Source: Actinomycetota bacterium
GTDB taxonomy: Bacteria; Actinomycetota; Acidimicrobiia; Acidimicrobiales; Ilumatobacteraceae
DNA length: 64,000 bases
Assembly (NCBI GenBank): GCA_041180605.1
Contig: JBEGRF010000051.1
Location: 36,421-100,420, forward strand
Reading direction: 5' to 3'
Part shown: in pieces, positions 23,907-52,416 of the stretch
How positions within the stretch are numbered: position 1 is the first letter of the stretch
Layout: each line of letters starts with the position of its first letter
Position numbers and translations under genes: made by a program
Notes under the pieces: model-generated
Database searches by the model: none
Seen by the model: the letters and a program-made list of their open reading frames with translations, nothing else
Told to the model about the DNA's origin: nothing

Positions 23907-25354
23907 CTCCGATCACCTTATTGAGCAGGTGTTCAAATTTCGCTGCATTTTGGTGTCCAACCGCCAAATCAATGTTGACTTGACCGCTCTCGTCTCCGAG
24001 CTGAATTCGGTGACATCCTTGTTCAGGAAGTTCAGGCAAGCAGACAAATCGCGAAATTGAGTTTTGCTTAATTGTCACAACACCTCCAACTGCTTAGCCG
24101 CTATGTTGATTCACGTGTCAAGTCTGCAGTTCAATGTCATTGATGTAGGTGCTCGTTATGGAATTCATCCCTCGCTGCGGCGTCTTATGGGAATGGTTCC
24201 AATCCACCTGTTTGAACCAGATCCAACAGAGTCGGAGAGACTCTCGGCACAGTATGCGTCGATTCGTGGAGTATCCGTTCATGCAGTTGCATTGGGTGTC
24301 GCAAGTAGCGCGAGACCGTTTGTACTTCGAGAACACCGAGGTCTTAGTGGATTTGCCGACATTTCACCCGACAACTCGAACTGGAAAATTCCGGTTCAGG
24401 GAGTGGGGGAGTTCGAGCATATACAAGTGGAAGTTCGGCCGCTTTCCGATTTCCTAATTGGTAAGCCTGCAATTATCAAACTTGATACCGAGGGTAGCGA
24501 GTTTGAAATACTCGTCTCCGCGGGAGAGCAATTGCGAAATGTGACTGCAATCCGGCTTGAATTCAATATGAGGGCGCTATGGAGCACGGGGACCAGCTTC
24601 GCCAAGCTGGATGCTTTTTTGGCCGAGCAAGGATTCGTGTTTACTAATTTTGATTCTCCGCCAAACGGCTCGATCTTCGGTCGACTTCCACTGCCCGGAA
24701 GCAAGGGACAGTTGATTGCCGGCGATGGTTTGTGGGTGCGCGAACAAAGGGAATCGACTTTAAGTGACCCAGAGCTTTTCTGTCGCTCGTTCTTCTTTTA
24801 TTTGAACGGCCTCGAGGGATTGGGACTTGAGGACGTATCAAAACTGTCAGAAGATGCGAGGGTGAGCCTTATCTGCTCTGAGCATTCTTCGCTTGAGGCT
24901 CTGCTGTACGCACTTGTGCTTCAACATCTTCTATCTGCGCGGCTTTACCCACACTTCGGGGCTTCGGCAGTTGAATCTGAGCACTTGAATCTCTTTGGCC
25001 GTCCGATTCCTGGGCGCGAAATCCTCTTTCAGCGTCTCCACCAAGCGGGACTAAATGTTGAGTAGTCGTAGCGCCAGAGGGCAGACCAAAGAAAAATCTA
25101 GGCTCATGACAAATCTAGGTCCTAGCCTTTGGTCGCAGTCTTGAACTTGTAAACTCAAGGTTAAGTACCTGATAGATCCTATCGCACTTGGTGAACACCT
25201 CCTGAATTGTCGTGCTTGTACGCACCGCGGAACTTCATTTGTGAACCAGATGGCAAGGCTCAGGCGTGTGCGAGATCTCGGCTCAGGGTCGCCTGCAGTC
25301 ATAGGCAAATTCGTGGGACCGCACACAATCCGAAGAATTACTGTTTTGGATCGG
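23907..25354. other. AT-richer islet (probable horizontally acquired remnant) abutting the 3' end of tRNA-Gly
   Basis: Base composition shifts abruptly (for example ttattgagcaggtgttcaaatttcgctgcattttggtg), judged by eye. It contains one convincing gene (FkbM-type methyltransferase) and about 290 bp of non-coding DNA with a short direct repeat AAATCTAGG x2 at about 25094-25120. No integrase or att repeat was seen. Confidence 0.6.
24103..25065 (+). CDS. FkbM family methyltransferase with ~110-aa C-terminal extension
   Basis: ORF 24064..25065; ATG 24103 preferred. Motifs VIDVGARYG, HLFEPDP, AVALG, and IIKLDTEGSEFEILVSAGEQL...IRLEF are typical of Methyltransf_21/FkbM. Confidence 0.8.
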   Translation: MLIHVSSLQFNVIDVGARYGIHPSLRRLMGMVPIHLFEPDPTESERLSAQYASIRGVSVHAVALGVASSARPFVLREHRGLSGFADISPDNSNWKIPVQGVGEFEHIQVEVRPLSDFLIGKPAIIKLDTEGSEFEILVSAGEQLRNVTAIRLEFNMRALWSTGTSFAKLDAFLAEQGFVFTNFDSPPNGSIFGRLPLPGSKGQLIAGDGLWVREQRESTLSDPELFCRSFFFYLNGLEGLGLEDVSKLSEDARVSLICSEHSSLEALLYALVLQHLLSARLYPHFGASAVESEHLNLFGRPIPGREILFQRLHQAGLNVE

Positions 25355-25425
25355 AGCGGGTGACGGGAATCGAACCCGCGTTCTCAACTTGGGAAGCTGA
25401 TGTTCTGCCATTGAACTACACCCGC
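25355..25425 (-). tRNA. tRNA-Gly (anticodon CCC)
   Basis: Reverse complement GCGGGTGTAGTTCAATGGCAGAACATCAGCTTCCCAAGTTGAGAACGCGGGTTCGATTCCCGTCACCCGCT. It folds as a cloverleaf with anticodon loop TTCCCAA and T-loop GGTTCGATTCC. CCA is not encoded. Confidence 0.9.
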
Positions 25426-25508
25426 CGGCGGCGCTGCACCAGCGTCATCTCGAAGCGTACCAACGTCGCTTCTCGGCGAATTCTGCGTCTTACTAAGGTT
25501 GGTGCGCC

Positions 25509-26072
25509 GTGATCCTCTCTGATCGCTCCATCCGCGAAGCAATGACGGCCAAGCGCATCATCATCGACCCGTTCGACGAAGCGTGCCTGCAACCGTCGTC
25601 GATCGACGTGAAAGTGTCCAATCTCTTCCGCGTGTTCCGCAACCACACGACTGCTCTCATCGACGTGAAGAAGGATCTCACCGACCTGACCGAATTGGTG
25701 GAGATGAAAGGCGATGAACCGTTCGTCTTGCATCCGGGCGAGTTCGTGCTCGGCTCCACGCTCGAGCGAGTGGCGATCGCGAACGACCTCGTGGCGCGCG
25801 TCGAGGGCAAGAGCTCGCTCGGCCGGCTCGGTCTGCTCATCCATTCGACCGCCGGATTCATCGATGCGGGGTTTGACGGCCACATCACGTTGGAGTTGTC
25901 GAACGTGGCGAACCTTCCGATCACGATCTACCCGTCGATGAAGATCGGCCAAGTGAGTTTCATGACTATGACGACGCCGGCCGACAAGCCGTACGGCTCA
26001 GGGGCTCGCGGCTCGAAGTACCAAGGCCAGCGCGGCCCGACGCCGAGCCGCTACTTCGAAAACTTCCGCTGA
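25509..26072 (+). CDS. dcd: dCTP deaminase
   Basis: 187 aa. [12 protein letters not shown]...[18 protein letters not shown]...[32 protein letters not shown]. Confidence 0.95.
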
Positions 26073-38612: not shown

Positions 38613-39893
38613 ATGCCCGTCACCGTCGTAGTCGGCACCCAGTGGGGAGACGAGGGCAAAGCCAAGATCATCGACCTGCTGTCGGGCACCCACAGTCATG
38701 TGGTGCGCTACCAAGGTGGCCACAACGCTGGTCACACCGTGGTGGTCGGTTCCGAACGCTACGCGCTGCAGCTCGTGCCCAGCGGCGTTCTGTATCCGCA
38801 CGTCACTCCGGTCATCGGCAACGGGGTCGTCGTCGACCTGCCGACGCTCTTTTCGGAGATTGACGCGCTCGAAAAACGGGGCGTGTCGTGCTCGGGCCTG
38901 CGCGTCTCGACCCTCGCGCACCTCATCTTCCCGTGGCATCAGCGGCACGACGCCATCAGCGAAGCATTGCGCGGTGAGTCAAAACTCGGCACCACGCTGA
39001 AAGGCATCGGACCCGCCTATGCCGACAAGGTGAAGCGCATCGGGGTGCGTGCCGGCGACGTGCGCGACCGAGAACGCTTCTGCGCACTCGTCAAAGAGCG
39101 CGCGACGCAGGAAAACGAGCTGTTCGCTTCGCTCGGGGAAGAACTTCTCGACGTCGACCAGATCGTGCGTCGTTACGACGAATACGGTCGCCGTCTGGTT
39201 CCGCACTTGTCCGACACGGTCAACCTGCTGCACGCAGCGCTCGGAACCGGCGCCTCGATCTTGCTCGAAGGTGCGCAAGCGACGTTCCTCGACATCGATC
39301 ACGGAACGTACCCGTACGTCACGTCGTCGAACCCCACTGCCGGCGGCGCATGCGCGGGAAGCGGTATCGGTCCTCGTCACATCACCCGCGTGGTCGGCAT
39401 CGCAAAGGCGTACACCACTCGCGTGGGTGCCGGACCCTTCCCCACCGAAATGCATGGTGAGACTGCCGATCGAGTAGTCGACATCGGCAGGGAGTTCGGC
39501 ACGGTGACGGGCCGTCGCCGTCGGCCGGGCTGGCTCGACCTCGTGATGTTGCGCCACGCAGTGCGCGTGAACTCGTTGACAGACATCGCGCTCACGAAAC
39601 TCGACGTGCTCGACGATTTCGATGACATCAAGGTGTGCACGGGCTATGTGCTCGACGGCCGCACGCTCGATTCGTTCCCCGACGACGCCGATACCCTCGC
39701 TCGCGTTGAGTGCGTGTATGCGTCATTGCCCGGTTGGAAACGGCAGTTGCGCCGTTGCAAACGCGAGAGCGACCTGCCCGAGCAAGTGTTGGCGCTGCTC
39801 GCGCTCGTCGAAAGCCTCACTGGGGTGCCAGTGAGCGTGGTCGGCGTAGGTCCGGAACGCGATGACGTGGTCGTGCGCGGTACTCGAGCATGA
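38613..39893 (+). CDS. purA: Adenylosuccinate synthase
   Basis: ATG 38613 after AGGAG. VVVGTQWGDEGKAKIIDLL, GGHNAGHTV, GTTLKGIGPAY. Confidence 0.96.
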   Translation: MPVTVVVGTQWGDEGKAKIIDLLSGTHSHVVRYQGGHNAGHTVVVGSERYALQLVPSGVLYPHVTPVIGNGVVVDLPTLFSEIDALEKRGVSCSGLRVSTLAHLIFPWHQRHDAISEALRGESKLGTTLKGIGPAYADKVKRIGVRAGDVRDRERFCALVKERATQENELFASLGEELLDVDQIVRRYDEYGRRLVPHLSDTVNLLHAALGTGASILLEGAQATFLDIDHGTYPYVTSSNPTAGGACAGSGIGPRHITRVVGIAKAYTTRVGAGPFPTEMHGETADRVVDIGREFGTVTGRRRRPGWLDLVMLRHAVRVNSLTDIALTKLDVLDDFDDIKVCTGYVLDGRTLDSFPDDADTLARVECVYASLPGWKRQLRRCKRESDLPEQVLALLALVESLTGVPVSVVGVGPERDDVVVRGTRA

Positions 39894-41200
39894 TCGACCG
39901 TTACTCGCTCCCGGAGATGGACGCCATCTTTTCGGATGTCGCACGGTTCTCCCGTTATCTCGAGATCGAACTGCACGCGCTCGACGGCCAAGCGATCGTC
40001 GGGGCAGTTCCATCGACTGTTTCGGCAACGTGTCGTGCGCGCGCACCGAAAATTGACGAGGCGTTCGTTCGCGACGTGTCAGAACGTGAGGCAATCACGA
40101 ACCATGACGTGGCCGCATTCGTCGACGTCGTCCAGCAGCGGATCAGTGGCGCGGAGGCAGCGTGGCTGCACCATGGCCTGACGAGCAGTGACGTCGTCGA
40201 TACGGCCTGGTGTGCGATGCTGCGTGACGCCGCCGAACTCATCGATGCGGCTCTCGGAGAACTCGTCGGTGTGCTGGTGCGCGAGGCGCGCAAGCATCGC
40301 GACACCCCGATGATTGGGCGCACCCACGGAATCCACGCCGAGCCCACCACGTTCGGCTCGAAGGTCGCGTTATGGGCCTTGCAGATCGATCGAGATCGTC
40401 GACGAATGAAAGCCGCTCAGTACACCATTGCGGTCTGCAAATTGTCTGGTGCGGTCGGCACCTACAGCAACATCGACCCACGCGTCGAAGATCATGTGGC
40501 ACGAGCAATGAACCTGCGCGCCGTGCCGGCGACACAAGTGGTGAGCCGCGATCGACATGCCGAGTTTCTCTACGCTTGTGCGAGCATCGCCGACACAGTC
40601 GAGATGATCGCTATCGAATTACGAAACTTGCAGCGCACCGAAGTATCGGAAGTGCGTGAAGGCTTCGGCGCAGGGCAGAAGGGCAGCTCTGCAATGCCGC
40701 ACAAGCGCAACCCGATCTCCGCTGAGACGCTCTCGGGCCTCGCACGAGTGGTGCGCGGAAACTTGCAAGCCGGCCTGCAGAACGTCGCGTTGTGGCACGA
40801 GCGCGATATTTCGCATTCGTCGGTTGAGCGCATCATCCTGCCCGACACCGCGACGCTTGCGTACTACATGGTGAAACGTCTGGCACGGCTGGTCGCCAAC
40901 TGGGAAGTCGACACGAGGCAGATGCTCAGCAATCTCGAGATGACTCGCGGCGCGATCTTTTCCCAATCGGTGCTGCTCGCCCTCGTCGAATCTGGGATGT
41001 CGCGCGATGACGCCTATCGAGTGGTGCAAGATGCGGCGCGACAGTCGCATGAGACCGGTTCGCACCTGTGCGACGTGCTCGCCGCGATGCCTGTCGCGTC
41101 GCAAGCGCTGGATGCCGCAAGGCTCGCATCCATCTTTGACACATCGCGAGTGCTGCGCTATGCGGGCCGCGCGGTCGACGCACTCAGCGAACTCGACTGA
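39890..41200 (+). CDS. purB: Adenylosuccinate lyase
   Basis: ATGA overlap with the purA stop. Fumarate-lyase signature GSSAMPHKRNP. Confidence 0.95.
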   Translation: MIDRYSLPEMDAIFSDVARFSRYLEIELHALDGQAIVGAVPSTVSATCRARAPKIDEAFVRDVSEREAITNHDVAAFVDVVQQRISGAEAAWLHHGLTSSDVVDTAWCAMLRDAAELIDAALGELVGVLVREARKHRDTPMIGRTHGIHAEPTTFGSKVALWALQIDRDRRRMKAAQYTIAVCKLSGAVGTYSNIDPRVEDHVARAMNLRAVPATQVVSRDRHAEFLYACASIADTVEMIAIELRNLQRTEVSEVREGFGAGQKGSSAMPHKRNPISAETLSGLARVVRGNLQAGLQNVALWHERDISHSSVERIILPDTATLAYYMVKRLARLVANWEVDTRQMLSNLEMTRGAIFSQSVLLALVESGMSRDDAYRVVQDAARQSHETGSHLCDVLAAMPVASQALDAARLASIFDTSRVLRYAGRAVDALSELD

Positions 41201-41205
41201 CGATC

Positions 41206-41775
41206 ATGACCCAATTGCCCGCGCTCGACCCGCTTCGTGAACGCCTGCGTCAGCACGTGCTCACGCATTCGCTGAAGACCGGCAGTTTCACTTTGAAAAG
41301 TGGTCGTTCGAGCAACTGGTTCTTGGACACCAAGCAGACCGCCTGCCGACCCGACGGAATCGTGCTCGTCGCCGATCTGGCGCTTTCAATCCTCCCTTCA
41401 GATGCCACCGCAATCGGCGGTCTCACCATGGGTGCCGACCCCGTCGCCTACGGAGTTGCCGCGGTCGCCGCGTCACGCGGGCGCGCGCTGCGCAGCTTCA
41501 GCGTGAGGAAAGAAGCAAAGGATCACGGTGTGAAAGGGCGCATCGCCGGCGCACTCCAACCCGGCGACAAGGTGGTCATCGTCGAAGACACCGTCACGCG
41601 CGGCACGTCGATCTTCGAGGCCGTCGAAGCGGTGAAAGAGTTCGGCGCACATCCCGTGTTCATCACGGTGGTCGTCGATCGTGGCGGCACGTGCGCGGCG
41701 ATGGCCCGTGACGCAGGGATTGCCTATGAGTCGATGCTCACCGCGCCACAACTCGGCTACGACTACAACTCGTAA
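41206..41775 (+). CDS. pyrE: Orotate phosphoribosyltransferase
   Basis: 189 aa. PRPP-binding motif KVVIVEDTVTRGTS. Confidence 0.92.
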   Translation: MTQLPALDPLRERLRQHVLTHSLKTGSFTLKSGRSSNWFLDTKQTACRPDGIVLVADLALSILPSDATAIGGLTMGADPVAYGVAAVAASRGRALRSFSVRKEAKDHGVKGRIAGALQPGDKVVIVEDTVTRGTSIFEAVEAVKEFGAHPVFITVVVDRGGTCAAMARDAGIAYESMLTAPQLGYDYNS

Positions 41776-41844: not shown

Positions 41845-41920
41845 TGGTGGTCGGGACCGGCGTCGATCCGGTGACCCCGCGCTTTTCAGGCGCGTGCTCT
41901 GCCAACTGAGCTACCCGACC
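41845..41920 (-). tRNA. tRNA-Phe (anticodon GAA), CCA encoded
   Basis: Reverse complement GGTCGGGTAGCTCAGTTGGCAGAGCACGCGCCTGAAAAGCGCGGGGTCACCGGATCGACGCCGGTCCCGACCACCA. Confidence 0.93.
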
Positions 41921-41945
41921 ATGATTCGGTGTTTCCACCGTCTCG

Positions 41946-42020
41946 CGGTCCCGACGGGATTTGAACCCGCGACCTCCGGCTTGACAGGCCGGCGTGAACT
42001 CCAAACTTCACCACGGGACC
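41946..42020 (-). tRNA. tRNA-Asp (anticodon GTC)
   Basis: Reverse complement GGTCCCGTGGTGAAGTTTGGAGTTCACGCCGGCCTGTCAAGCCGGAGGTCGCGGGTTCAAATCCCGTCGGGACCG. Confidence 0.93.
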
Positions 42021-42046
42021 AGATTCGTTGTCGAAACTGATCTTCG

Positions 42047-42119
42047 CACCCCCAACGGGATTCGAACCCGTGCCGCCACCTTGAAAGGGTGGTGTCCTAG
42101 GCCTCTAGACGATGGGGGC
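42047..42119 (-). tRNA. tRNA-Glu (anticodon TTC)
   Basis: Reverse complement GCCCCCATCGTCTAGAGGCCTAGGACACCACCCTTTCAAGGTGGCGGCACGGGTTCGAATCCCGTTGGGGGTG. It has a G1-U72 wobble at the top of the acceptor stem. Confidence 0.9.
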
Positions 42120-42221: not shown

Positions 42222-42704
42222 TCACTCGCGCAACTCGTCGAGCGAGGCGTGAAGGAGCCAGCCGAGGTAGTCGTACACCTCGCGCTGCGGTTGGCTGGCG
42301 TCATCGCCTGACCCATCTTCGGCCGAGTCGTCATCGTCCTCGCTCACATCGAGCAGCGTGCCGAGCACGAGACGCATCGAATTGAGCGCTCGGACGAATC
42401 GTTCCAGCTCCTCGGTACGAAACACTCGCTCGGGCGACAACAATTGCACTGCCTCGTCGATTGCCGCAATGTGCGAGTCGGCGATGTCCCCGTGCGTCAA
42501 GCGCACGTACTCATCGTTCAATCTCTGGTCATCGTGGTACGCCGAGGGGAAGAGGCGCTTCATATGCTCGCCGACCTGCTCGGGCGGTACTCCTCTTGCA
42601 GCGACTACCTCGCCGCGCAACTCTCCGAACAGCCGTGCGATGATCTCCCGCGAGTGGTCGTCAATGCCGAGGCGCAAACCGCCTTCGACGTGCTGAAAAA
42701 TCAT
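42222..42704 (-). CDS. Acidic protein coupled to clpS (DUF2017-like by position)
   Basis: ATG 42704 ([22 protein letters not shown]) overlaps the clpS stop as ATGA. Acidic tail [15 protein letters not shown]. The upstream ORF extension is Arg-rich and lies inside clpS. The family name is from recollection. Confidence 0.7.
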
Positions 42705-42982
42705 GCGTCTTCCCGCTGCATGGTGGCCCACAAGCCGTGCTCGTGCAGTCGTTGTACGTCGACCTCGGCCCGTTCTCTGGTTCCGTTCGAAACTACGGCG
42801 CGGCCCTTTTCGTGAACGTCGAGCATTAACGCCGTCGCTTTCTCGAGGCTGTAGCCGAACAATTTCTGGAACACCCACGTCACGTACGACATGAGATTGA
42901 TCGGATCGTTCCAGACGATGACGACCCACGGACGATCGATGCCGACGTCCGTCCCGCGCTCGACATCGGTGACGGTCGACAT
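42701..42982 (-). CDS. clpS: ATP-dependent Clp protease adaptor ClpS
   Basis: ATG 42982. [47 protein letters not shown]. Confidence 0.92.
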
Positions 42983-43041
42983 ACTTCCATTGTGCCGACG
43001 CAAGGTCCCGTGGCCCCCGAGTCCTCCTAGCCTTCTAGCGC

Positions 43042-43974
43042 GTGGTGCTCGGTCGACCTCTCGTCCCATCACGATTGACGAGCTCGTTCGCCCACGTGGG
43101 ATCGCGTCCCGCACGCACGCAGATCGGCGCGTACGTCATGCTGACCAAGCCGCGGATCATTGAACTGCTGCTCATTACCACCGTGCCGACGATGGTGCTC
43201 GCCCAGGGCGGGTGGCCGGACACGTGGCTCGTCGTGCTCACGGTGCTCGGGGGCGCGCTCGCCGCCGGCGGTGCGAACGCCATAAATATGTACATCGACC
43301 GCGACATCGACCACTTGATGGAGCGCACGAAGAATCGTCCTCTCGTCACGGGTCGCGTGGCGCCACGCAACGCACTCATCTTCGCTGTGACCCTCGAAGT
43401 GCTGTCATTCATCGTGCTTGCTGCCTCGTCGAACGTGCTCGCCGGGCTGCTTGCGATTGGTGCGACTCTTTTCTATGTCTTTGTCTATTCGCTCTGGTTG
43501 AAACGCACCTCGCGGCAGAACATCGTCATCGGCGGTGCAGCGGGCGCCGCCCCTGTTCTTGTCGGTTGGGCCGCGGTCACCAACGATGTCTCGTGGTCGG
43601 CGGTCGTCCTCTTTCTCGTCATCTTCTTTTGGACTCCGCCGCATTTCTGGGCACTCGCGATACGCCACGTCGATGAGTACCGCGCGGCATCGGTGCCGAT
43701 GCTGCCCGTCGTCGAAACTTTGGCTCGCACGGTGCGCACCATGGGGCTGTATTCCGTCGCGGTTGCGCTCGCGTCGTGGGCGCTGATTCCGATGAACGAC
43801 ATGGGTGTCATTTACACCGTGGCATCGTTCGTGCTCGGCATCGCGTTCGTAGCGCTGACCTTCGGTCTCGGTCGAGCACCCAGTCCCTCGGCCGCGATGC
43901 GCGTGTTCTCGTTCTCCATTACCTACGTCACGCTGCTTTTTCTCGCCGTGATGATCGATGTGCTCGTGCGCTAG
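43042..43974 (+). CDS. ctaB: Protoheme IX farnesyltransferase (heme O synthase)
   Basis: [14 protein letters not shown]..., [23 protein letters not shown], polytopic. The exact start is uncertain (GTG 43042, 43045 or 43096). Confidence 0.92.
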
Positions 43975-44051: not shown

Positions 44052-45551
44052 GTGACGACGGCAGTGGATTCGCGCGCGACAAGCAGTGTCGGCTCATCGG
44101 CCGTCCCCGCACCGCTCTCGGCGATCGGCCGTTGGCTGACTACCGCAGACCACGTGCGAGTGGGTGCCTCCCTCGTCGTAAGCGCATTCGTCTGGGCGTT
44201 GGTCGCCGGTGCACTCGGTGCCGTCCTCGGCGTAGAGCGGCTCGATGCCGGTTCGGCGCTCGTCGATGCTGATGCGCTGGCACAGCTGTTCTCCCTGCAC
44301 CGCTTTGCGCTCGTGTTCGGGGTGCTCGCTCCGTTGATGCTCGGCGTGTCCGTCTTGACGGTGCCCGCGCAGTTGCACGCTGCCAACCTTTCTGTCCCGC
44401 GATTGGCGGCGTTCGGCTGGTGGGCGTGGCTCGCAGGAAGCATCATCGCACTCGTCTCGTACATCGGCAACGGCGGTCCGGGCGGGGGAGACGGGCGCTA
44501 CGTCGAGACGTATCTGCTCGGTCTCGCCATCGTCATTCTCGGTCTCGTCGCGGTCGCCGTGTCGCTCGCCACCACCGTGCTGACTCGTCGCAACGGCAAC
44601 CGACTCGCCGACATACCGGTCGGCGCATTCGCTGCACTCGTCTCGGCGGTCGGAGTGACCCTCACGTTCCCCGTGGCCCTCGGCACCGTCGCTTACTTGT
44701 GGGTTGATTTCGTCAATGCCCGTGTCGCGTTCGGCGGCGGCGACATGTTCGATTCGTGGCTCGGTTGGTTGATGCGCGAGCCGCAAACGCTGCTCTTGGC
44801 TGCTCCGGCGCTGGGCATCCTGGCGGATGCAGCAGCTCGCACCGCCAAGTCTCGCCAGCCGCTACGCGGAGTAGTGCTCGTCGGTGTAGGAATCTCGGCT
44901 GTCGTCGTCTTCAGTTCAGTGACCCAGCAGGCTCACGTGTTCGCGACGGGGAAGACACCGTTCGAAACCCTGCAATCGTTCGTGCCCTTCGCCCTCTTCA
45001 ACGTGCTTCCGCTGCTCGCACCATGTTTCGTGGTGCTGCTCTCGCTCCTCGCGCTCAAGTCGGGCACGAGCGCTCTTTCTGGCGCATTCGTCGCATCTTT
45101 CCTGGGAGTCGGAATGGTATTCACCGGACTGGTTGGTTCCGCGGCCATGCACCTCGAAGCCCTCGACCTCATCGGCACGGTGTTCGGCGAAGCCACCCTC
45201 GTCTATGTCGTCTACGGCACGGTGCTCGCCGCCGTCGGAGCGATCACCTTGCATGCGGGGGCCGTCACTGGCCGCGCACTTCCGGACACGCCGGTTCTCC
45301 TGCTCGCGCTATCGGGATTCGCCGCCACCGTGCTCGCGTCGCTCCCGCACTTCGTCGCCGGCTTCCTCGATCAGCCGGCAGCAGTAGCAGCCGGTTATGA
45401 CGACTCTGGTTTCGTCGGCATCGCCAACGTGCTCGTCGGCGTAGGCCACGCGCTCATGGCTCTCGTCGTGCTCGCTTTCGCCGGTCTCTTCTTCAAGTCC
45501 CGGCGCGGCGAAGCCGCCACCGACCGATATGCGACGGAGGTGTCTGCATGA
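44052..45551 (+). CDS. Heme-copper oxidase subunit I-like polytopic protein lacking most canonical His ligands
   Basis: 499 aa. Collinear by eye with the window's own ctaD (RWLTTADHVRVG vs SWLFTVDHKKLG; LFSLHRFALVFGVLAP vs MFTMHATTMVFLFVMP). The GHPEVY, HH and HFHY blocks are replaced. Confidence 0.8.
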   Translation: MTTAVDSRATSSVGSSAVPAPLSAIGRWLTTADHVRVGASLVVSAFVWALVAGALGAVLGVERLDAGSALVDADALAQLFSLHRFALVFGVLAPLMLGVSVLTVPAQLHAANLSVPRLAAFGWWAWLAGSIIALVSYIGNGGPGGGDGRYVETYLLGLAIVILGLVAVAVSLATTVLTRRNGNRLADIPVGAFAALVSAVGVTLTFPVALGTVAYLWVDFVNARVAFGGGDMFDSWLGWLMREPQTLLLAAPALGILADAAARTAKSRQPLRGVVLVGVGISAVVVFSSVTQQAHVFATGKTPFETLQSFVPFALFNVLPLLAPCFVVLLSLLALKSGTSALSGAFVASFLGVGMVFTGLVGSAAMHLEALDLIGTVFGEATLVYVVYGTVLAAVGAITLHAGAVTGRALPDTPVLLLALSGFAATVLASLPHFVAGFLDQPAAVAAGYDDSGFVGIANVLVGVGHALMALVVLAFAGLFFKSRRGEAATDRYATEVSA

Positions 45552-46153
45552 GCGTTCCAGCACTCACGGCCGGGCCTGCTCGTCGCACGAGCACGGTCTT
45601 TGTCGCCACCGGATTCGTCTCCGCTGCCGCAGCGGCACTGATGGGCGGGATGCTCGCGATCTGGCTCGACTTTCGTGCAAAGGCTCCGACGCGCATCGCC
45701 GGGGACGGTGCGACAATCATCAAAGACTGGCTGAAGAAAGACATCACGATCCCTGAGGTCGCCGCGAACACGATGATGTTCACCTTCGTCATCGCGTGCG
45801 TGATGGCCCAGTGGGCGGTCTACTCGGGGCGGCGAAACGACAAGTCGCACACCACGCTCGCTCTTGCGGTAACGCTCTTCACGGGCCTCGCGCTGCTCAA
45901 CGTGCAGGCTGCCCTGTGGATGCAGATGGACATCGTGCTGCGCGACGACGCGTACCAGACGATGTTCTATACGGTCACCGGAACGATGTTTGCGCTCATC
46001 GCGAGTGCAGTGGTCTACTCGCTCGTCGCGATGTTCTGGGTGCTCGCCGGTCGAACGAGCGACCACGACGTTCTTGCCGCCCATGCCCTCTATTGGTACG
46101 CGACCTACGGCATCTTTGCCGCCCTCTGGTTCGTCGTCTACGTGCAGAAGTAA
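45548..46153 (+). CDS. Heme-copper oxidase subunit III-like 5-TM protein
   Basis: 201 aa. ATGA overlap with the preceding gene. Aligns by eye with ctaE over its full length (FYTVTGT vs FYTLTGF; ALYWYATYGIFAALWFVVYV vs GLYWHFVDIVWIIIFTLVYL). Confidence 0.75.
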   Translation: MSVPALTAGPARRTSTVFVATGFVSAAAAALMGGMLAIWLDFRAKAPTRIAGDGATIIKDWLKKDITIPEVAANTMMFTFVIACVMAQWAVYSGRRNDKSHTTLALAVTLFTGLALLNVQAALWMQMDIVLRDDAYQTMFYTVTGTMFALIASAVVYSLVAMFWVLAGRTSDHDVLAAHALYWYATYGIFAALWFVVYVQK

Positions 46154-46157
46154 CACC

Positions 46158-47291
46158 ATGTTCAAGGTCGGATCCAAACTCTTCCTCGGTCTCACCGGGT
46201 TCGCAGCGCTCGTCCTCCTCGCGTACATCATCTTCGTCGAACGACTCGCGGTCGGCGGCGTGGCGCTCAGCCTCGTCTTTGCTGCGCTGGTCGGCCTCAC
46301 CTCCATCGTCTTGGCCGTCAACGAGGGTGACGACGAAGTGCAGCCTCGTGATGCGACGCTCACCAGGGCGTCGATGTGGCCGCTGGTCACCGTCGTCGGT
46401 CTCGTGCTCTTCGTGCTCGGGCTCGTCGTTGCGCAGGTGTATTTCGTCTTCGGCATCGTCGTAGTGCTCGCGGCACTCGCGGAATGGATGGTGCAATCGT
46501 GGAGCGAATCGGCGTCAGACGACGTGCTCCACAACGAGTCTGCACGCCGACGCTTGCTCCACCCGATCGAATTCCCCGTGCTCGCGGCACTCGGCCTCGG
46601 CGTCATTCTCTTTTCGTTCTCGCGCATCATGCTCGCCATCTCGAAGAGCTCGGGTGCCGCCATGTTCATCGTGGTGGCCTCGTTGGTGCTATTGGCAGGT
46701 TCGCTCTTTGCACTTCGACCGTCGTTGAAGCCGGCGCTCGTGAGCGGAATCTGCGTCGTCGGCGCCATCGGCATCGTCGCAGGCGGAATCGCTGGCGCCG
46801 GAGCCGGCATGCGCACGGAACTCGCCGAGGCAAAGGAAGAAGGCCACTTTTCTCACCGCGAATGCGGGACGGAAAAGTCGAAGTACTTCGACAAGAAGGC
46901 GATGAAGACGTTGTCCTTGCGCAGCAACGTCGCCGCAGTGATCGAACTTCGCGACGGCAAACTCACGGCCGCAGTGGCCGGGTTCGAAGATCCACAAGAA
47001 ACGATCAGCGTGCCGCGCTCCAACCCCGTCACGTTCATCTTCCGCAACCATGACGACACCGAACGGCGCATGGTTGCCACCCTCGGCACTGCGATGGCCG
47101 CGAGCGCGACGCAAGAGGCCCCGAGCGAGAAGCACGGAGACAGCAACGAGACGTGCACCCAACTCATCCCGAACGGCGCGGAGCAAGGGCTCACCATCAC
47201 GTACAACAAACCCTCGATCGCACAAGAGACTCCCTTCACCCTGAGCGTTCCGGGGCTCGACGGGCAGTACATCGAGGTACTGGTGCCGTGA
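46158..47291 (+). CDS. Polytopic (about 7 TM) membrane protein with ~170-aa C-terminal soluble, beta-rich (cupredoxin-like?) domain
   Basis: ATG 46158 lies 4 nt after the previous stop (MFKVGSKLFLGLTGFAALVLLAYIIFV). C-terminal ...ISVPRSNPVTFIFRNHDDTERRMVATLG...GLTITYNKPS...FTLSVPGLDGQYIEVLVP. The ORF extension from 45990 overlaps the previous gene. Confidence 0.7.
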   Translation: MFKVGSKLFLGLTGFAALVLLAYIIFVERLAVGGVALSLVFAALVGLTSIVLAVNEGDDEVQPRDATLTRASMWPLVTVVGLVLFVLGLVVAQVYFVFGIVVVLAALAEWMVQSWSESASDDVLHNESARRRLLHPIEFPVLAALGLGVILFSFSRIMLAISKSSGAAMFIVVASLVLLAGSLFALRPSLKPALVSGICVVGAIGIVAGGIAGAGAGMRTELAEAKEEGHFSHRECGTEKSKYFDKKAMKTLSLRSNVAAVIELRDGKLTAAVAGFEDPQETISVPRSNPVTFIFRNHDDTERRMVATLGTAMAASATQEAPSEKHGDSNETCTQLIPNGAEQGLTITYNKPSIAQETPFTLSVPGLDGQYIEVLVP

Positions 47292-47344
47292 ATCACGAAC
47301 GAACGAATGCACCTGCCGACCGCCACGGCTTTAGCGTGAGGCGC

Positions 47345-48541
47345 ATGGGTGTGCGGTCGCTCGTGTCCCGAGTTGCGGCCGCACTCGGCCTGCTCGTCGT
47401 CCTTGCCTCGTGCGCCACGGATGCGCCGCAAGACACGTGGCAGCCGAAAGGTCCGAACGCCAAACTGATCGACGATCTCCAACAGCCGATCTTCGCGGTC
47501 GCGGGCATCATCGGCATCATCGTCTTCGCAGTCATCGTGTACGTCATCTGGCGTTACAAGGACCGCGGCCAACCGATTCCCGAGCAGACGCACGGCAAGC
47601 CGGCGCTGGAGATCACGCTTACCGTCATCCCCGCACTCATCCTCGCCGTCGTCGGTGTGTTCACCGTGCGCGCCATCTTCGACCTCGCCCGCACCGACGA
47701 CAGCGAACTCGTCATCAACGTGACCGGGCAGCAGTGGTGGTGGGAATACGACTACCCCGTGCAGAACGAATGGGGAATCACTCAGCCGATCATCACCTCG
47801 GGCCAGTTGGTGATGCCAGCCGGCACGAAGGTGCTCCTGCGCGAGACGAGTCGCGATGTCATCCACTCGTATTGGATCCCCGCGCTGAACGGCAAGCGTG
47901 ACGCGGTCCCTGGACGTATCCATACACTGCGACTCGAGGCCGACGAACCCGGCATCTATGCCGGACAATGCACCGAATTCTGCGGCCTCTCGCATGCAAA
48001 CATGCGCATGGAGGCAGTCGCCCTCTCCAAGGAAGACTTCGCCGCGTGGGTAGCCAACCAGCAGGCTGCGTACACGTCACCTGCAGAAGGCACGCTGGCC
48101 AAAGAAGGCGAATCGGTGTTCCTCAACCAGTGCGTACGCTGCCACCAAGTCAACGGCTTGAAGCGCGCCGACGGCACGCTTGCGATCGCCGCACCCGACG
48201 AGAACGTGTGGTCGGGTGCCGCCCCGAACTTGAGCAAATTGATGACTCGCAACACGTTCGCGGGGGCGATGTTCGACCTCCTGCGAGATGCATGCCGCGA
48301 CGACGTGTGGAAGTCCGCAAGCGCTGACTTCGGGGCGAAATACCTCGCTGGCGTCGACGAAACGTGCCTCAACGTCACCGACCTGCGCGCATGGTTGCGC
48401 AATGCGCCGGCCGAGAAGCCGATGTACTCGAATCCGGCACTTCTCACCGAGACGAACGGCAAGTACCGCGGCATGCCGAATCTCGGCCTGAGCGAATCCG
48501 ACATCGACAAACTCGTCGCATACCTGCTCACGCTGAAATAG
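47345..48541 (+). CDS. ctaC: Cytochrome c oxidase subunit II with fused C-terminal cytochrome c domain (caa3 type), lipoprotein signal
   Basis: Lipobox LVVLASC. CuA site CTEFCGLSHANM (47969-48004). Heme c motif CVRCH (48131-48145). An alternative start at GTG 47288 overlaps the upstream stop (GTGA). Confidence 0.92.
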   Translation: MGVRSLVSRVAAALGLLVVLASCATDAPQDTWQPKGPNAKLIDDLQQPIFAVAGIIGIIVFAVIVYVIWRYKDRGQPIPEQTHGKPALEITLTVIPALILAVVGVFTVRAIFDLARTDDSELVINVTGQQWWWEYDYPVQNEWGITQPIITSGQLVMPAGTKVLLRETSRDVIHSYWIPALNGKRDAVPGRIHTLRLEADEPGIYAGQCTEFCGLSHANMRMEAVALSKEDFAAWVANQQAAYTSPAEGTLAKEGESVFLNQCVRCHQVNGLKRADGTLAIAAPDENVWSGAAPNLSKLMTRNTFAGAMFDLLRDACRDDVWKSASADFGAKYLAGVDETCLNVTDLRAWLRNAPAEKPMYSNPALLTETNGKYRGMPNLGLSESDIDKLVAYLLTLK

Positions 48542-48550
48542 GAGGAAGAG

Positions 48551-50581
48551 ATGGCCATCATTGAACGCCCCGCCCCGACGACGGTTCCGGCGCTCGTACC
48601 AGCGGCCCCCGCCATCACGCCCACCCGCACCTTCGGCGCGCTGCGACGACCCGTCACGAGTACCGGTTGGAAGTCGTGGCTGTTCACCGTCGACCACAAG
48701 AAACTCGGGCTCATGTACGGCGCAATGGCGCTCTTTTTCTTTCTCGTCGGCGGCATCGAGGCGGTGCTCATCCGCCTGCAGCTAGCCGCCCCCGACGGCA
48801 AGGTGCTGAACGCCGACCTCTACAACCAGATGTTCACTATGCACGCCACGACGATGGTGTTCTTGTTCGTGATGCCGATGGCGGCAGGATTCGCCAACTA
48901 TTTCGTACCGTTGCAGATCGGTGCTCGAGACGTCGCGTTCCCGCGCATCAACGCGTTCGGTTTCTGGTGCGTACTGGGCGGCGGCATCGTCGTCAACCTC
49001 GCGTGGTTCCTCGGCGGAGCCGCCGACGGCGGATGGTTCATGTACGCGCCGAATTCTGGCCCGGTGTTCTCACCGAGCCACGGCGTCGACTTCTGGGCGC
49101 TCGGATTGCAGATTGCCGGCATCGCCTCACTGACTGGCGCCATCAACTTGATCGTCACCGTGCTCAACATGCGTGCACCGGGCATGACACTCATGAAGAT
49201 GCCGGTCTTCACGTGGATGATCACGGTGGTGCAGTTCCTCCTTCTGTTCGCCGTGCCGGTGATCACCGTCGCCCTCTTCTTGCTCACCTTCCAACGAATG
49301 TTCGGCGCACAATTCTTCGACGTCGCGGCCGGAGCCGACCCGCTCCTGTGGCAGCACCTCTTCTGGATCTTCGGCCACCCAGAGGTGTACATCCTGGTTC
49401 TCCCGTCATTCGGCATCATCTCCGAAGTGCTGCCGGTGTTCAGCCGCAAGCCGCTCTTTGGGTATCCCTTCGTCGTCTTCTCCGGTGCCGCCATCGGCTT
49501 CGTCGGTTGGGGAGTGTGGGCCCACCACATGTTCGCCTCCGGTCTTGGGCCCGTGTCGGTCGCAGTGTTCAGCGTCGCCACCATGGCGATTGCCGTCCCG
49601 ACGGGCGTCAAGATCATCAATTGGACGCTCACCATGTGGGGCGGCAAGTTGGTGTTCTCCACCCCGATGAAATTCGCCATCGGTCTCGTCGTGTTGTTCA
49701 CCATCGGCGGCCTCTCCGGCGTCACCCACTCCGTCGCACCGAGCGACACCCAACAGACCGACACCTATTACATTGTCGCCCACTTCCACTACGTGCTGTT
49801 CGGCGGCGCGATCTTCGGCATCTTCTCCGGCTTCTACTACTGGTGGCCCAAGATGTTCGGCAAGATGCTCAACGAGCGCCTCGGCTCATGGAACTTCTGG
49901 CTCATGGTCATCGGCATGAACCTCACCTTCGGCCCGATGCACATCCTCGGACTGCAGGGCCAACCGCGCCGCATGTACGTGTGGACCGAAGCCCGCGCCG
50001 GCGAAGGCTTCTTCAACCTGGCGTTCTGGAATCTCGTCGCGTCGCTCGGCTCGATCGTCCTCGCAGTCGGAGTGCTGTTCTTCCTCATCAACATCGTGGT
50101 GACGGCCCGCAACAAGACGCGCGCCCCGCTTGACCCGTGGAATGCGCGAAGTCTCGAGTGGATGACCGCGAACCCGCCCAAAGAGCACAACTTCGACTCG
50201 ATTCCGCACGTGCATCACTTGGACGAGTTCTTCCACCGCAAGTACGAAGAAGACCCGACCACCCACACCATGCGCGAGGTCGCGTCGGCCGAGCAAGTAC
50301 TCGCCGAGCTCGAGCGCAACGCCGACCATCACATCCACATGCCGTCGCCGTCTTACTGGCCGATCGTGCTCGCATCCGGCCTCCCGATCGTCGCGCTCGG
50401 GGCGATCTATTCGATTCCAGTCGCCATCGTGGGTGCGGTCGTCATCTTGTACGCGATGTACGGATGGGCACTCGAGCCGTCGGTGGCCCCGGAGAGTGAC
50501 TTCGATCCGGCGTCAGGCAACGGAACTTCCGCAAACGGCGCGTCGGGCAGCGGGCATGCCCTCGGAGCAAGTCATGGCTGA
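48551..50581 (+). CDS. ctaD: Cytochrome c oxidase subunit I with ~110-aa C-terminal extension (two extra predicted TM helices)
   Basis: 676 aa after GGAGGAAGAG. WLFTVDHKKLGLMY, WQHLFWIFGHPEVYILVLP, WAHHMFASG, VAHFHYVLFGG. Tail ...HIHMPSPSYWPIVLASGLPIVALGAIYSIPVAIVGAVVILYAMYGW. Confidence 0.96.
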   Translation: MAIIERPAPTTVPALVPAAPAITPTRTFGALRRPVTSTGWKSWLFTVDHKKLGLMYGAMALFFFLVGGIEAVLIRLQLAAPDGKVLNADLYNQMFTMHATTMVFLFVMPMAAGFANYFVPLQIGARDVAFPRINAFGFWCVLGGGIVVNLAWFLGGAADGGWFMYAPNSGPVFSPSHGVDFWALGLQIAGIASLTGAINLIVTVLNMRAPGMTLMKMPVFTWMITVVQFLLLFAVPVITVALFLLTFQRMFGAQFFDVAAGADPLLWQHLFWIFGHPEVYILVLPSFGIISEVLPVFSRKPLFGYPFVVFSGAAIGFVGWGVWAHHMFASGLGPVSVAVFSVATMAIAVPTGVKIINWTLTMWGGKLVFSTPMKFAIGLVVLFTIGGLSGVTHSVAPSDTQQTDTYYIVAHFHYVLFGGAIFGIFSGFYYWWPKMFGKMLNERLGSWNFWLMVIGMNLTFGPMHILGLQGQPRRMYVWTEARAGEGFFNLAFWNLVASLGSIVLAVGVLFFLINIVVTARNKTRAPLDPWNARSLEWMTANPPKEHNFDSIPHVHHLDEFFHRKYEEDPTTHTMREVASAEQVLAELERNADHHIHMPSPSYWPIVLASGLPIVALGAIYSIPVAIVGAVVILYAMYGWALEPSVAPESDFDPASGNGTSANGASGSGHALGASHG

Positions 50582-51170
50582 GACTGCAGTGGCCCACGAC
50601 ACCCACGCGACGAGCACCGGGCTCTCCAACGTGAAGCTCGGCATGTGGCTCTTCCTCGGCTCAGAGTGCCTGCTATTCGGCGGACTGATCTCCACCTACA
50701 TGCTCTATCGCGGTCGAGTCGCCAATGGCCCGACGCCCGAGCAGGTGTACGACATCCCATTCACGTCAGTCAGCAGCTTCGTGCTGCTCATGAGCTCGCT
50801 CACGATGGTGCTCGCGGTCACTGCAGCCCACAAGAAAGACGATCGCAACACGAACCTGTGGCTCACCGTTACCGCTTTGCTCGGCGCCACGTTTGTCGGC
50901 GGCCAGGTGTACGAGTTCACCGCCTTCTACAACGAAGGCCTTGGTTTCACCACCAGCCTCTTTGGCTCGAGCTTCTACACCCTCACCGGCTTCCACGGCG
51001 TCCACGTCACCGTCGGCATCATCATGCTGCTCGCACTCGTGGCGATCAACAAGCGCAGCCGCGTGCCGGGCAGCAAATCGGAGACTGTCGAGATGATCGG
51101 CCTCTACTGGCACTTCGTCGACATCGTCTGGATCATCATCTTCACTCTCGTGTACCTCATTCCGGTCTGA
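50574..51170 (+). CDS. ctaE: Cytochrome c oxidase subunit III (short, 5-TM form)
   Basis: ATG 50574 overlaps the ctaD end. FYTLTGFHGVHVTVGIIML, GLYWHFVDIVWIIIF. Confidence 0.92.
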   Translation: MAETAVAHDTHATSTGLSNVKLGMWLFLGSECLLFGGLISTYMLYRGRVANGPTPEQVYDIPFTSVSSFVLLMSSLTMVLAVTAAHKKDDRNTNLWLTVTALLGATFVGGQVYEFTAFYNEGLGFTTSLFGSSFYTLTGFHGVHVTVGIIMLLALVAINKRSRVPGSKSETVEMIGLYWHFVDIVWIIIFTLVYLIPV

Positions 51171-51172
51171 TC

Positions 51173-51475
51173 ATGACGACATCGACGCCGACCCACGCCG
51201 AGCACGGCATGTCCACTCGCGGCTACGTCAATATCGCGGTCATCTTGGCGGCCATCACTGCACTCGAGGTCTCCACGTACTACGTGGACTTCGGCCCGCT
51301 CTTCTTGCCGGCATTGCTCATCATGATGGTGGTCAAGTTCTTCATGGTCGTCAGTTACTTCATGCATCTCAAGTTCGACAACAAGATCTTCAGTTGGCTG
51401 TTCTACGCGGGCTTGTTCCTCGCAGTCAGCGTGTACGTTGCGGCTCTCGCGACATTCCATTTCTTCCTGCGCTGA
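51173..51475 (+). CDS. ctaF: Cytochrome c oxidase subunit IV (prokaryotic COX4 type)
   Basis: ATG 51173 lies 2 nt after the ctaE stop. 100 aa, 3 TM. ...YVNIAVILAAITALEVSTYYV...KFFMVVSYFMHLKFD... Confidence 0.85.
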   Translation: MTTSTPTHAEHGMSTRGYVNIAVILAAITALEVSTYYVDFGPLFLPALLIMMVVKFFMVVSYFMHLKFDNKIFSWLFYAGLFLAVSVYVAALATFHFFLR

Positions 51476-51483
51476 GCACGCAC

Positions 51484-52416
51484 ATGCACGCGCCGGTCGC
51501 ACTGCTCGCAGAGTCGGCTGATCTTCTCGCCAGCCCGTGGCGTTTCCAGGCGCACCCCGAGGTGTGGCTGCTCGTCGCGTTCGTGGTTGCTTCGTGGTGG
51601 TATGCGCTCACATTCATCGGCCCGCACACGCCGGAGGTGCGTGCCGGCGGGCCACTCGTGACGGCGCGCCAAAAGAGGCTCTTTGTTCTCGCGGTGATCG
51701 TGCTGTGGTTGGCGTCTGATTGGCCGATTCACGACATCAGCGAGGAATACCTCTATGCCGTGCACATGTTCCAGCACATGGCGCTGTCGTACTTCTTGCC
51801 GCCGCTCGTGCTGCTCTCGATGCCGACCTGGCTGTTTCGGGCGGTCATCGGTTCGCAACGTGTCGGCCGTGCCATCCGCTGGTTCGCCAAGCCGGTCGTT
51901 GCAGGACTGGTCTTCAACGTCATGGTGATGGTCACGCACATCCCCGCACTCGTCAACCGCAGTGTGTCGAACGCCCCGCTCCACTATTCGCTGCACGTCG
52001 GACTGGTCGTCTCTGCGCTGTTGATGTGGACGCCGGTGGCCGCGCCCGACCCTGCGATGCGCATCGGATATGGCGGGCGGATGATCTATCTCTTCCTCAT
52101 GTCGGTGGTACCAACGGTTCCGGCCGCATGGCTCACCTTTGCGGAGGGTGCCGTCTACAAGCACTACGACATCGCGGTCCGTGTTTGGGGTCTCTCCGTG
52201 ACGACCGACCAACAGATTGCCGGCGCGATCATGAAGGTCGGTGGCTCGATCTTCTTGTGGTCGATTGTCGTCTTCTTGTGGTTCAGGCGCTTCATGGCCG
52301 GATACGGCGAAGGCCAGAGCTATGTGCGCAACCCCGAGCCCTCGCTCACCTACGAAGAAGTCACGCGGGAATTCGAGCGCGTTCCGGCGCATCCAGAGCC
52401 TCGCCGCGACGGCTGA
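51484..52416 (+). CDS. ctaG: Cytochrome c oxidase assembly factor CtaG (caa3_CtaG family, polytopic)
   Basis: ATG 51484. ...EYLYAVHMFQHMALSYFLPPLVLLSMP..., HIPALVN, DQQIAGAIMKVGGSIF. Confidence 0.85.
   Translation: MHAPVALLAESADLLASPWRFQAHPEVWLLVAFVVASWWYALTFIGPHTPEVRAGGPLVTARQKRLFVLAVIVLWLASDWPIHDISEEYLYAVHMFQHMALSYFLPPLVLLSMPTWLFRAVIGSQRVGRAIRWFAKPVVAGLVFNVMVMVTHIPALVNRSVSNAPLHYSLHVGLVVSALLMWTPVAAPDPAMRIGYGGRMIYLFLMSVVPTVPAAWLTFAEGAVYKHYDIAVRVWGLSVTTDQQIAGAIMKVGGSIFLWSIVVFLWFRRFMAGYGEGQSYVRNPEPSLTYEEVTREFERVPAHPEPRRDG

Follow-up and report, generated by a model that had tools for sequence, protein, structure and literature searches.

Haem-copper oxidases and their ligand-less relatives

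Subunit I of the A-family oxygen reductases, as represented by actinobacterial aa3 CtaD (PDB codes, 6hwh, 6adq, 9gy6, and 7q21), displays a 12-helix transmembrane (TM) fold covered by the PF00115 profile and carries six histidine ligands, the tyrosine of the HPEVY motif, the D- and K-channels and an arginine pair. The haem-copper oxidase (HCO) superfamily also includes the NO reductases (NORs), comprising the cNOR, qNOR, eNOR, bNOR, sNOR, gNOR, and nNOR families, which preserve a high-spin haem and an FeB site; the metal of the latter has three ligands, of which gNOR exchanges one His for Asp (PMC11214002). According to the same paper, the most recent survey of HCO diversity, the families that have lost the active-site Tyr retain their haems as well as the metal site (PMC11214002). 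A ligand-less relative has been mentioned in Acetobacter, where a 'deranged COX1-like protein' devoid of metal-binding residues clusters with ctaB, a CtaB-stabilizing role being proposed in a remark in PMC10715153 (citing Matsutani et al. 2014, BBA 1837:1810). Here, a 64,000-nucleotide stretch of an Ilumatobacteraceae contig (JBEGRF010000051.1, positions 36,421 to 100,420 of the forward strand; hereafter the window) is analysed, in which three contiguous genes, X1, X3, and X2, mirror, in degenerate form, subunits I, III, and IV/II of the caa3-type oxidase encoded directly downstream. X1 keeps the subunit I fold and has lost nearly all the residues that hold the cofactors, and the module would, on balance, act beside the working enzyme as a catalytically dead companion.

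Dead-enzyme paralogues serve as structural or scaffold subunits in several systems, including the core proteins of the bc1 complex, the α subunit of F1, and NifEN. By analogy, X1 resembles them as a paralogue of a catalytic subunit kept under selection beside the active enzyme; it differs in that all cofactor and substrate sites are gone, not the catalytic ones alone, and in that we infer its association with the oxidase. The HCO-derived NORs share with X1 the superfamily, the loss of the cross-linked Tyr and a changed function, but they keep the haem and FeB active site, whereas X1 keeps none of it. The Acetobacter protein, which can be compared with X1 through its published description, is likewise a ligand-less subunit I homologue next to ctaB with a proposed structural role. 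However, that description presents it as a remnant in Alphaproteobacteria that have lost cytochrome c oxidase and use bo3, whereas X1 coexists with a complete caa3 operon to which it is coupled, has III-like and IV/cupredoxin-like partners, and is conserved class-wide. In the literature searched, where subscription journals were mostly uncovered and an earlier mention is possible, no description of a ligand-less HCO family was found, the Acetobacter remark being the sole precedent.

X1 as a full-length paralogue of subunit I

The X1 gene (44052-45551, + strand; GTG start) encodes a protein of 499 residues that matches PF00115 (COX1) with 99.1 bits (cut-off 34.8) over profile positions 2-414 of 436, compared with 519.7 bits for the ctaD product of the same window. 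The score against TIGR02891 (CtaD_CoxA) is 113 bits, about 6-fold below the equivalog cut-off of 670. In BLASTP, the first 300 residues of X1 align with the window CtaD (27% identity, E 2e-23), the X1 and CtaD family profiles align in hhalign with probability 100 and E 9e-49, and the closest solved structures retrieved by phmmer are mycobacterial and corynebacterial CtaD. An AlphaFold2 (AF2) model built from a 27-sequence family alignment (pLDDT 86.4, pTM 0.89) comprises 12 long TM helices, and its Foldseek superposition with A-family subunit I structures gives TM-scores of 0.80-0.83, with actinobacterial CtaD first.

X1 thus displays both the full-length profile match and the 12-TM arrangement that define subunit I of the PF00115 superfamily, and is a full-length, selected paralogue of the A-family, actinobacterial-type, subunit I. 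A preliminary description of this locus, made from the DNA letters alone, had proposed an intact 499-residue open reading frame (ORF) with the signature of the subunit I fold, and a 12-TM core from length and hydrophobicity; both proposals are borne out by the profile, hhalign, AF2, and Foldseek results. Like actinobacterial CtaD, X1 is followed by a subunit III-type gene within a cta operon; unlike CtaD, it is devoid of the conserved C-terminal DPW...TLEW segment.

Loss of cofactor, cross-link and channel residues

The ligand columns were read in four alignments, including (i) phmmer against mycobacterial CtaD, (ii) MAFFT of 115 homologues plus CtaD, (iii) L-INS-i, and (iv) an hhalign profile-profile comparison of 84 species-level X1 orthologues with 54 CtaD orthologues from the same genomes. 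Canonical site numbers, which we take to be those of R. sphaeroides, were mapped via motifs in the window CtaD. All 54 CtaD orthologues carry N121, D132, N139, H102, W280, H284, E286, Y288, H333, H334, T359, K362, D412, H419, H421, R481, and R482; among these canonical sites, only W280 is largely retained in the X1 family (62 of 84).

The block that holds the first CuB His, the channel Glu, and the cross-linked Tyr reads EPQTL in X1 (codons E243-L247, 44778-44792, +) against HPEVY in CtaD. The CuB His is replaced by E243 (Q, S, or E across the family), the channel Glu E286 by Q245 (Q, A, or T), and the Tyr by L247, a position occupied mostly by F or L and by Y in 10/84 orthologues. In helix X (codons T382-V384, 45195-45203, +), MAFFT, L-INS-i and the site table place T382 opposite the haem a3 His (A, V, or T in the family), in a register that differs between alignments, and V384 opposite the haem a His (V, I, T, or L); whatever the register, residues 368-400 contain no His. 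The Arg pair of the haem propionates, R/R in 54/54 CtaD sequences, maps in hhalign to A443 and A444 (45378-45383, +), with A and A/N/D/S in the family. The D-channel Asp corresponds to N112 and the K-channel Lys to V327, all the D-channel (N121, D132, N139, E286) and K-channel (K362, T359) residues being replaced by apolar or variable ones.

Two histidines require a separate account. H83 (44298-44300, +), opposite CtaD H98 in every alignment, corresponds to the helix II haem a ligand, as the preliminary description had noted; the residue is indeed present in the window but is vestigial, being kept in just 15/84 orthologues, the others having F, Y, L, S, or V. H295 (44934-44936, +), near the former CuB HH pair and present in 56/84 orthologues, lies opposite CtaD H326, the second His of that pair, by BLASTP, phmmer, and one MAFFT run, but not opposite a CuB His by L-INS-i or hhalign. 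Because its placement depends on the alignment, the earlier statement that one of the two His is gone agrees with the former programs, and may have to read that both are. The window X1 therefore has at most two of the six canonical His (H83, and H295 by some alignments), neither being conserved in the family.

The losses in the CuB/Tyr block and in helix X had been called correctly in the preliminary description, whose N-terminal, helix II, and CuB/Tyr block alignments are reproduced by BLASTP against the window CtaD, and the profile alignments to PF00115 and CtaD, which might have placed His at the ligand positions, agree instead with their loss. As judged from the residues, the loss is wider than that description listed, extending to the Arg pair and to the D- and K-channels. 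X1 is thereby devoid of at least two of the three CuB His, the cross-linked Tyr, both helix X His, the Arg pair, and the channel residues; save the unconserved helix II His and the ambiguous H295, nothing of the CtaD haem and CuB ligand set, His-Tyr pair and channels persists. Neither the six-His set, nor the HPEVY Tyr, nor the channels and Arg pair of an A-family oxygen reductase are present, and the X1 columns do not hold the NOR-type combination of a high-spin haem ligand, three metal ligands, and a low-spin haem. Since the residues for the haems, CuB, the His-Tyr link, and the proton channels are lost, X1 is predicted to be unable to reduce O2 or NO or to pump protons in the way the known enzymes do.

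A redox protein of another kind, binding haem or metal through non-canonical or migrated ligands as an odd oxidase, NO reductase, or electron carrier, seems very improbable. The window X1 does contain eight His, one of which (H83) occupies the position of a haem a ligand, with H34, H295, and H466 fairly conserved, and ligand migration has a precedent in the superfamily, discussed for the active-site Tyr (PMC11214002). Nevertheless, the conserved His, Met, and Cys would not suffice for a single bis-ligated haem together with a metal site (H83 in 15/84, H295 in 56/84), the propionate-binding Arg pair is gone, the described HCO and NOR families all keep their haem ligands (PMC11214002), and the cupredoxin domain of the neighbouring X2 has no Cu ligands, as detailed below.

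X3 and X2, degenerate partners of X1

The ATG start of the X3 gene (45548-46153, +; 201 residues) shares bases with the stop codon of X1 (ATGA) and is preceded by GGAGG 7 nt upstream. The window protein alone scores 18 bits against PF00510, below the cut-off of 23.8, while all 22 of the 22 X3 orthologues match this profile (best 2.9e-12). The X3 family profile retrieves PDB COX3 chains at 2e-11 and aligns in hhalign with the local CtaE (probability 96%, E 1e-9). By these profile comparisons, X3 is a degenerate homologue of cytochrome oxidase subunit III.

X2 (46158-47291, +; 377 residues) is a polytopic membrane protein with about 7 predicted TM helices and a C-terminal β domain of extracytoplasmic type, and its stop codon overlaps the GTG start of ctaC (GTGA). 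The gene is present in every locus long enough to contain it, and all homologues are annotated as 'hypothetical'. Residues 67-113 (46356-46496, +), with an SxWP...EW motif, resemble a subunit IV-type TM hairpin, the lines of evidence being weak but consistent: (i) hhalign against the C-terminal extension of CtaD (residues 596-642) gives probability 76% and E 2e-5; (ii) PF12270 is matched weakly by 3/21 X2 orthologues (best 1.5e-4); and (iii) the X2 profile matches the PDB CtaF chain 7q21_F weakly, at E 0.076.

The C-terminal residues, from about 255 to 377 (46920-47288, +), are predicted to adopt a cupredoxin fold without copper ligands. The X2 profile matches auracyanin (6kol) with E 0.008. 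The AF2 model of full-length X2 has a pLDDT of 56.6, whereas the C-terminal domain alone is confident (pLDDT 74-86), and only this domain was used; its top 50 Foldseek matches are all cupredoxins, 4hcf showing the highest TMt (0.66), and the model presents the superposable Greek-key β sandwich of the fold. The domain is closer to type-1, Cupredoxin_1, and EfeO-type domains than to CuA domains. The copper sites were located by reference to a distant X2 homologue (locus L089), the type-1 motif of which, MHT...FCDVPGHRDAGM, corresponds to ERRMV...LSVPGLDGQYIEV in the window, the ligand positions being occupied by R/E, S/L, L, and Y/I. Neither a type-1 set (His...Cys...His...Met) nor a CuA motif with two Cys and two His was found in the window X2. 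Copper-less cupredoxin subunits are known in cytochrome bo3 (subunit II) and gNOR (subunit II), which share with X2 a membrane anchor and a ligand-less cupredoxin, but X2 differs in its about 7 predicted TM helices, including the subunit IV-like hairpin, and in having no profile similarity to CtaC; a derivation of the domain as a copy of the CtaC cupredoxin was dropped on the latter ground.

Cys333 (CTQL, 47154-47156) is the sole invariant Cys of X2 and does not occupy a type-1 ligand position; a second Cys usually lies near residue 236, even in distant orthologues. The pair suggests a disulfide, which in turn would place the domain on the extracytoplasmic side. Residues 228-239 (about 46839-46874) contain an EGHxxHxECG motif conserved in the closer clades.

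The preliminary description had treated X1 alone, in a compact operon. The operon stands, but the next two genes, which also encode degenerate oxidase subunits, had been missed, and the unit to be considered is therefore the three-gene module.

Operon structure and synteny

The order ctaB-X1-X3-X2-ctaC-ctaD-ctaE-ctaF(-ctaG) is found in all of the about 95 loci that are long enough, with two exceptions (L049 and L091), and holds down to 40% X1 identity; locus L090, a fragmented and frameshift-ridden long-read contig, was left out. The X1/X3 junction measures -4 or -1 nt in 60/81 loci and the X2/ctaC junction -4 nt in 51/65. A promoter and terminator scan returned intragenic T-rich matches only, with no intergenic terminator-like site. 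From this arrangement, X1-X3-X2-ctaC are read as co-transcribed and probably co-translated. The module was never seen apart from cta genes in the about 95 loci, and its presence alongside the caa3 operon is conserved across Acidimicrobiia.

A further 80 unrelated metagenomic ctaD loci contain the X module in only three cases (L144, L147, and L158). These loci come from a metagenome scan aimed at X1 proteins that retain haem His, and its pattern corresponded to the canonical C-terminal COX1 motif, so that 79 of the 80 loci are ordinary ctaD with the full HHYHHHH set and the scan is uninformative on such proteins.

The position of X1 directly downstream of ctaB in 75/77 loci raises the possibility that X1, with X3 and X2, binds or stabilizes CtaB (and CtaA), or transiently holds haem O or A for the nascent CtaD, much as NifEN scaffolds a cofactor for NifDK. 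The adjacency of ctaA in two loci (L088 and L173) and the bis-His haem site retained by distant X1 homologues are in keeping with such a role, as is the CtaB-stabilizing function proposed, in the remark already quoted, for the ligand-less Acetobacter protein encoded with ctaB (PMC10715153). The axial ligands of each haem site are, however, gone or unconserved in the clade of the window, which makes the fit poor. Moreover, the stop/start overlap of the module is with ctaC, the ctaB-X1 gap being 54-172 nt. In L049, about 3.8 kb separate ctaB from X1, and in L091 four genes are inserted there; in both, X1-X3-X2-ctaC remain contiguous, linking the module to the oxidase genes rather than to ctaB. 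A haem hand-off or CtaB-partner role hence appears rather unlikely, if less so than the other alternatives considered here.

Breadth of the family and selection

A protein search of 5.8 billion sequences, with 8000 candidates scored, gave 202 X1 matches at E ≤ 0.001. Among the 120 matches listed, identities range from 40 to 94%, the names are generic oxidase subunit I or 'hypothetical', and the named sources are Ilumatobacteraceae, Acidimicrobiia, or Actinomycetota. At least 210 species-level genomes contain one peptide pattern specific to the family; they are assigned to Acidimicrobiia or to unresolved Actinomycetota metagenome-assembled genomes (MAGs), except for a few apparent mislabels. 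A profile search of 1.84 billion representatives at 50% identity returned 441 clusters at E ≤ 1e-30, the top 150 scoring above 219 bits. Names in public records include 'cbb3-type cytochrome c oxidase subunit I', 'cytochrome o ubiquinol oxidase subunit 1', 'cytochrome c oxidase subunit I+III', and 'haem/copper-type oxidase subunit 1'.

The dN/dS ratio (omega) was calculated by the Nei-Gojobori method for 160 close pairs and, separately, against the five closest relatives. For X1, the median is 0.086 (0.039-0.211) and the values against the five relatives are 0.12-0.15, the corresponding figures being 0.059 and 0.02-0.08 for X3, and 0.088 and 0.07-0.15 for X2. The canonical genes give medians of 0.051 (ctaB; 0.07-0.12 against the five relatives), 0.042 (ctaC; 0.05-0.11), 0.034 (ctaD; 0.05-0.065), and 0.035 (ctaE; 0.03-0.05). 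All-pairs ratios (omega 0.2-0.65) were discarded as inflated, since dS saturates at large distances. At the protein level, X1 evolves about 2.5 times faster than CtaD.

The faster rate and the complete loss of catalytic residues are what a decaying duplicate would show before acquiring stop codons. Yet the X1 ORF is full-length in 84 of 85 loci, across identities of 40-94%, and 82 of these 85 have an intact ORF of 476-563 residues; omega stays between 0.04 and 0.21 in the 160 pairs; and the family combines about 40 invariant residues of its own with conserved translational coupling and a confident 12-helix fold. The intact orthologues and the median omega refute the pseudogene reading, which retains hardly any probability. 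The preliminary description, which saw no obvious pseudogene here and proposed dN/dS as a check, is sustained by the intact orthologous ORFs and by ratios of about 0.09-0.15, indicative of purifying selection on X1; the frameshifts or stops in orthologues that it named as grounds for abandoning its view were looked for in the same loci, 84 of the 85 proving intact.

Constraint of this strength could also reflect a new non-redox activity, in which the empty scaffold would be reused as a transporter, channel, or sensor, co-expressed with the oxidase and functionally independent of it. The invariant residues of the family include E62, R63, Q78, D219, E380, Y385, Y388, Q441, N459, and H466 (90%), to which R117 and R180 can be added, all outside the canonical ligand set, and helices X and XI are the most conserved parts of the protein. 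The canonical D- and K-channel residues, though, are all replaced by apolar or variable ones, profile searches with X1 reveal no similarity to transporter families, and the module does not occur away from cta genes in the about 95 loci; an independent activity is accordingly considered unlikely, and more so than a role next to CtaB.

Distant relatives and the probable order of cofactor loss

Among 104 full-length representatives of the X1 family at 50% identity, 13 keep both low-spin haem His (H102 in helix II and H421 in helix X), and three of these 13 also keep the haem a3 His, H419. The CuB triad, the channel residues, and the Arg pair were found in none of the 104. Six loci that retain both low-spin haem His (L087, L088, L089, L172, L173, and L174) show the same synteny as the window; three of their X1 homologues also have the haem a3 His, and all six, with no CuB ligand kept, may be haem-only subunit I proteins. 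Given this graded retention, the loss of CuB probably preceded that of the haem sites, the Ilumatobacteraceae-type lineage of the window being, as far as the residues tell, the fully emptied end state.

In five of the six loci, X2 is short and has no cupredoxin; the X2 of L089 alone carries the intact type-1 Cu motif mentioned above, and a second Cupredoxin_1 gene lies just downstream in that locus, on the opposite strand. The idea that ancestral X2 carried blue copper was demoted to a possibility, the motif being intact in L089 only and the other five lacking the domain. In L087 (3665-4468) and L088 (11276-12115), acidic, His-rich tails (EEHEEEHG and HHGEESDHSEEEDHS, respectively) replace the cupredoxin and could be metal-binding.

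A proposed ghost oxidase beside the caa3 enzyme

The reading that we favour, with slightly better than even confidence, is that X1-X3-X2 constitute a catalytically dead 'ghost oxidase' that would serve the working caa3 enzyme, either structurally or as a scaffold for its assembly. X1, X3, and X2 would come together in the membrane, in the manner of subunits I, III, and II/IV, as a complex free of cofactors. This complex would physically join the real CtaCDEF oxidase, either lastingly, as a non-catalytic companion comparable to the dead-enzyme subunits found in other respiratory complexes, or while the oxidase is being built, as a scaffold. The ancestor of the module would have lacked CuB but bound haem, and the remaining cofactors would have been shed in the Ilumatobacteraceae-type lineage. 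Small amounts of an assembly factor usually suffice, whereas the translational coupling seen here points to stoichiometric synthesis, which weakly favours the partner over the scaffold.

Several observations weigh against the ghost oxidase. The similarity of X2 to subunit IV is weak, the model of its membrane part is of low confidence (pLDDT about 45-60), and hhalign discloses no profile similarity between its cupredoxin and that of CtaC. No docking face is apparent on X1, the conservation of its P-side and N-side being 0.61 and 0.58, respectively (Mann-Whitney p = 0.71); a P-side face for docking of the cupredoxin was dropped as a candidate because the P-side loops are not preferentially conserved. 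Finally, the invariant polar residues of X1 in or near the membrane (E62, R63, Q78, D219, E380, Q441, N459, and H466) are left unexplained and could mean a new activity.

The canonical cta genes and their surroundings

Immediately upstream of X1, ctaB (43042-43974, +; PF01040; NF003349 with 389 bits, above its cut-off) encodes haem O synthase, its start codon being uncertain. Downstream of X2, ctaC (47288-48541, +) encodes the real subunit II, matching COX2, COX2_TM, and Cytochrom_C; the fused cytochrome c domain, together with a lipoprotein-like signal (...LLVVLASC), identifies the working enzyme as caa3 type. The real subunit I, CtaD (48551-50581, +; PF00115), has all ligands present and a subunit IV-like C-terminal extension; its residues 582-643 match actinobacterial subunit IV (PF12270), despite the separate COX4_pro gene after ctaE. 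The real subunit III is encoded by ctaE (50574-51170, +; PF00510, 4.8e-20), with a start inferred from orthologues, and prokaryotic subunit IV by ctaF (51173-51475, +; PF03626, 1.4e-10). The gene for a Caa3-type CtaG assembly factor follows (PF09678, 2.7e-39) within ORF limits of 51394-52416 (+), the true start being probably near 51480.

Upstream of ctaB and divergent from it lies a ClpS/DUF2017 gene pair (42222-43114, -), found at the same place in 8 of the 9 related loci with upstream gene calls, including distant ones (L001, L002, L004, L086, L088, and L173); in L088 and L173, ctaA (COX15) stands between ClpS and ctaB. A cluster of tRNA-Phe, tRNA-Asp, and tRNA-Glu (41845-42119, -) separates the pyrE-like/purB/purA genes (38613-41775) from the ClpS-cta region. 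Elsewhere in the window, positions 24001-26000 have a G+C content of 0.53, compared with about 0.63 in the remainder, comprise an FkbM-type methyltransferase ORF (24064-25065), and adjoin tRNA-Gly (25353-25425, -); this low-G+C stretch may be a small acquired island.

Implications for the haem-copper superfamily and Acidimicrobiia

X1 represents a pseudo-enzyme branch of the haem-copper superfamily accompanied by a whole shadow operon. HCOs belong to the best-studied membrane enzymes; their classification schemes presuppose the six His, and a family that keeps the fold with no cofactor falls in their blind spot. The family is large, with at least 210 species and hundreds of clusters at 50% identity, and resides inside the operon of a working enzyme together with equally degenerate partners. 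Under the oxidase names that they bear in the databases, X1 relatives would make Acidimicrobiia MAGs seem richer in terminal oxidases than they are when their metabolism is reconstructed, which matters for the abundant freshwater and marine members of the class (acIV / Ilumatobacteraceae).

A structural or assembly role of the ghost oxidase, if real, would make it a new kind of accessory module in the biogenesis or architecture of oxidases. A more far-reaching and rather doubtful proposal, offered tentatively, is that the module either takes part in an obligate hetero-assembly of the caa3 enzyme with a cofactor-free I-, III-, and IV/II-like half, or has a new non-redox role based on E380, R63, Q441, and H466, with the family still keeping intermediates (CuB-less bis-His proteins and one blue-copper X2). 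The former case would give the first example of a respiratory oxidase of which one half is a dead paralogue. The graded retention of ligands offers a natural series on the stability of the subunit I fold without haems and on the stepwise hollowing-out of a haem-copper enzyme.

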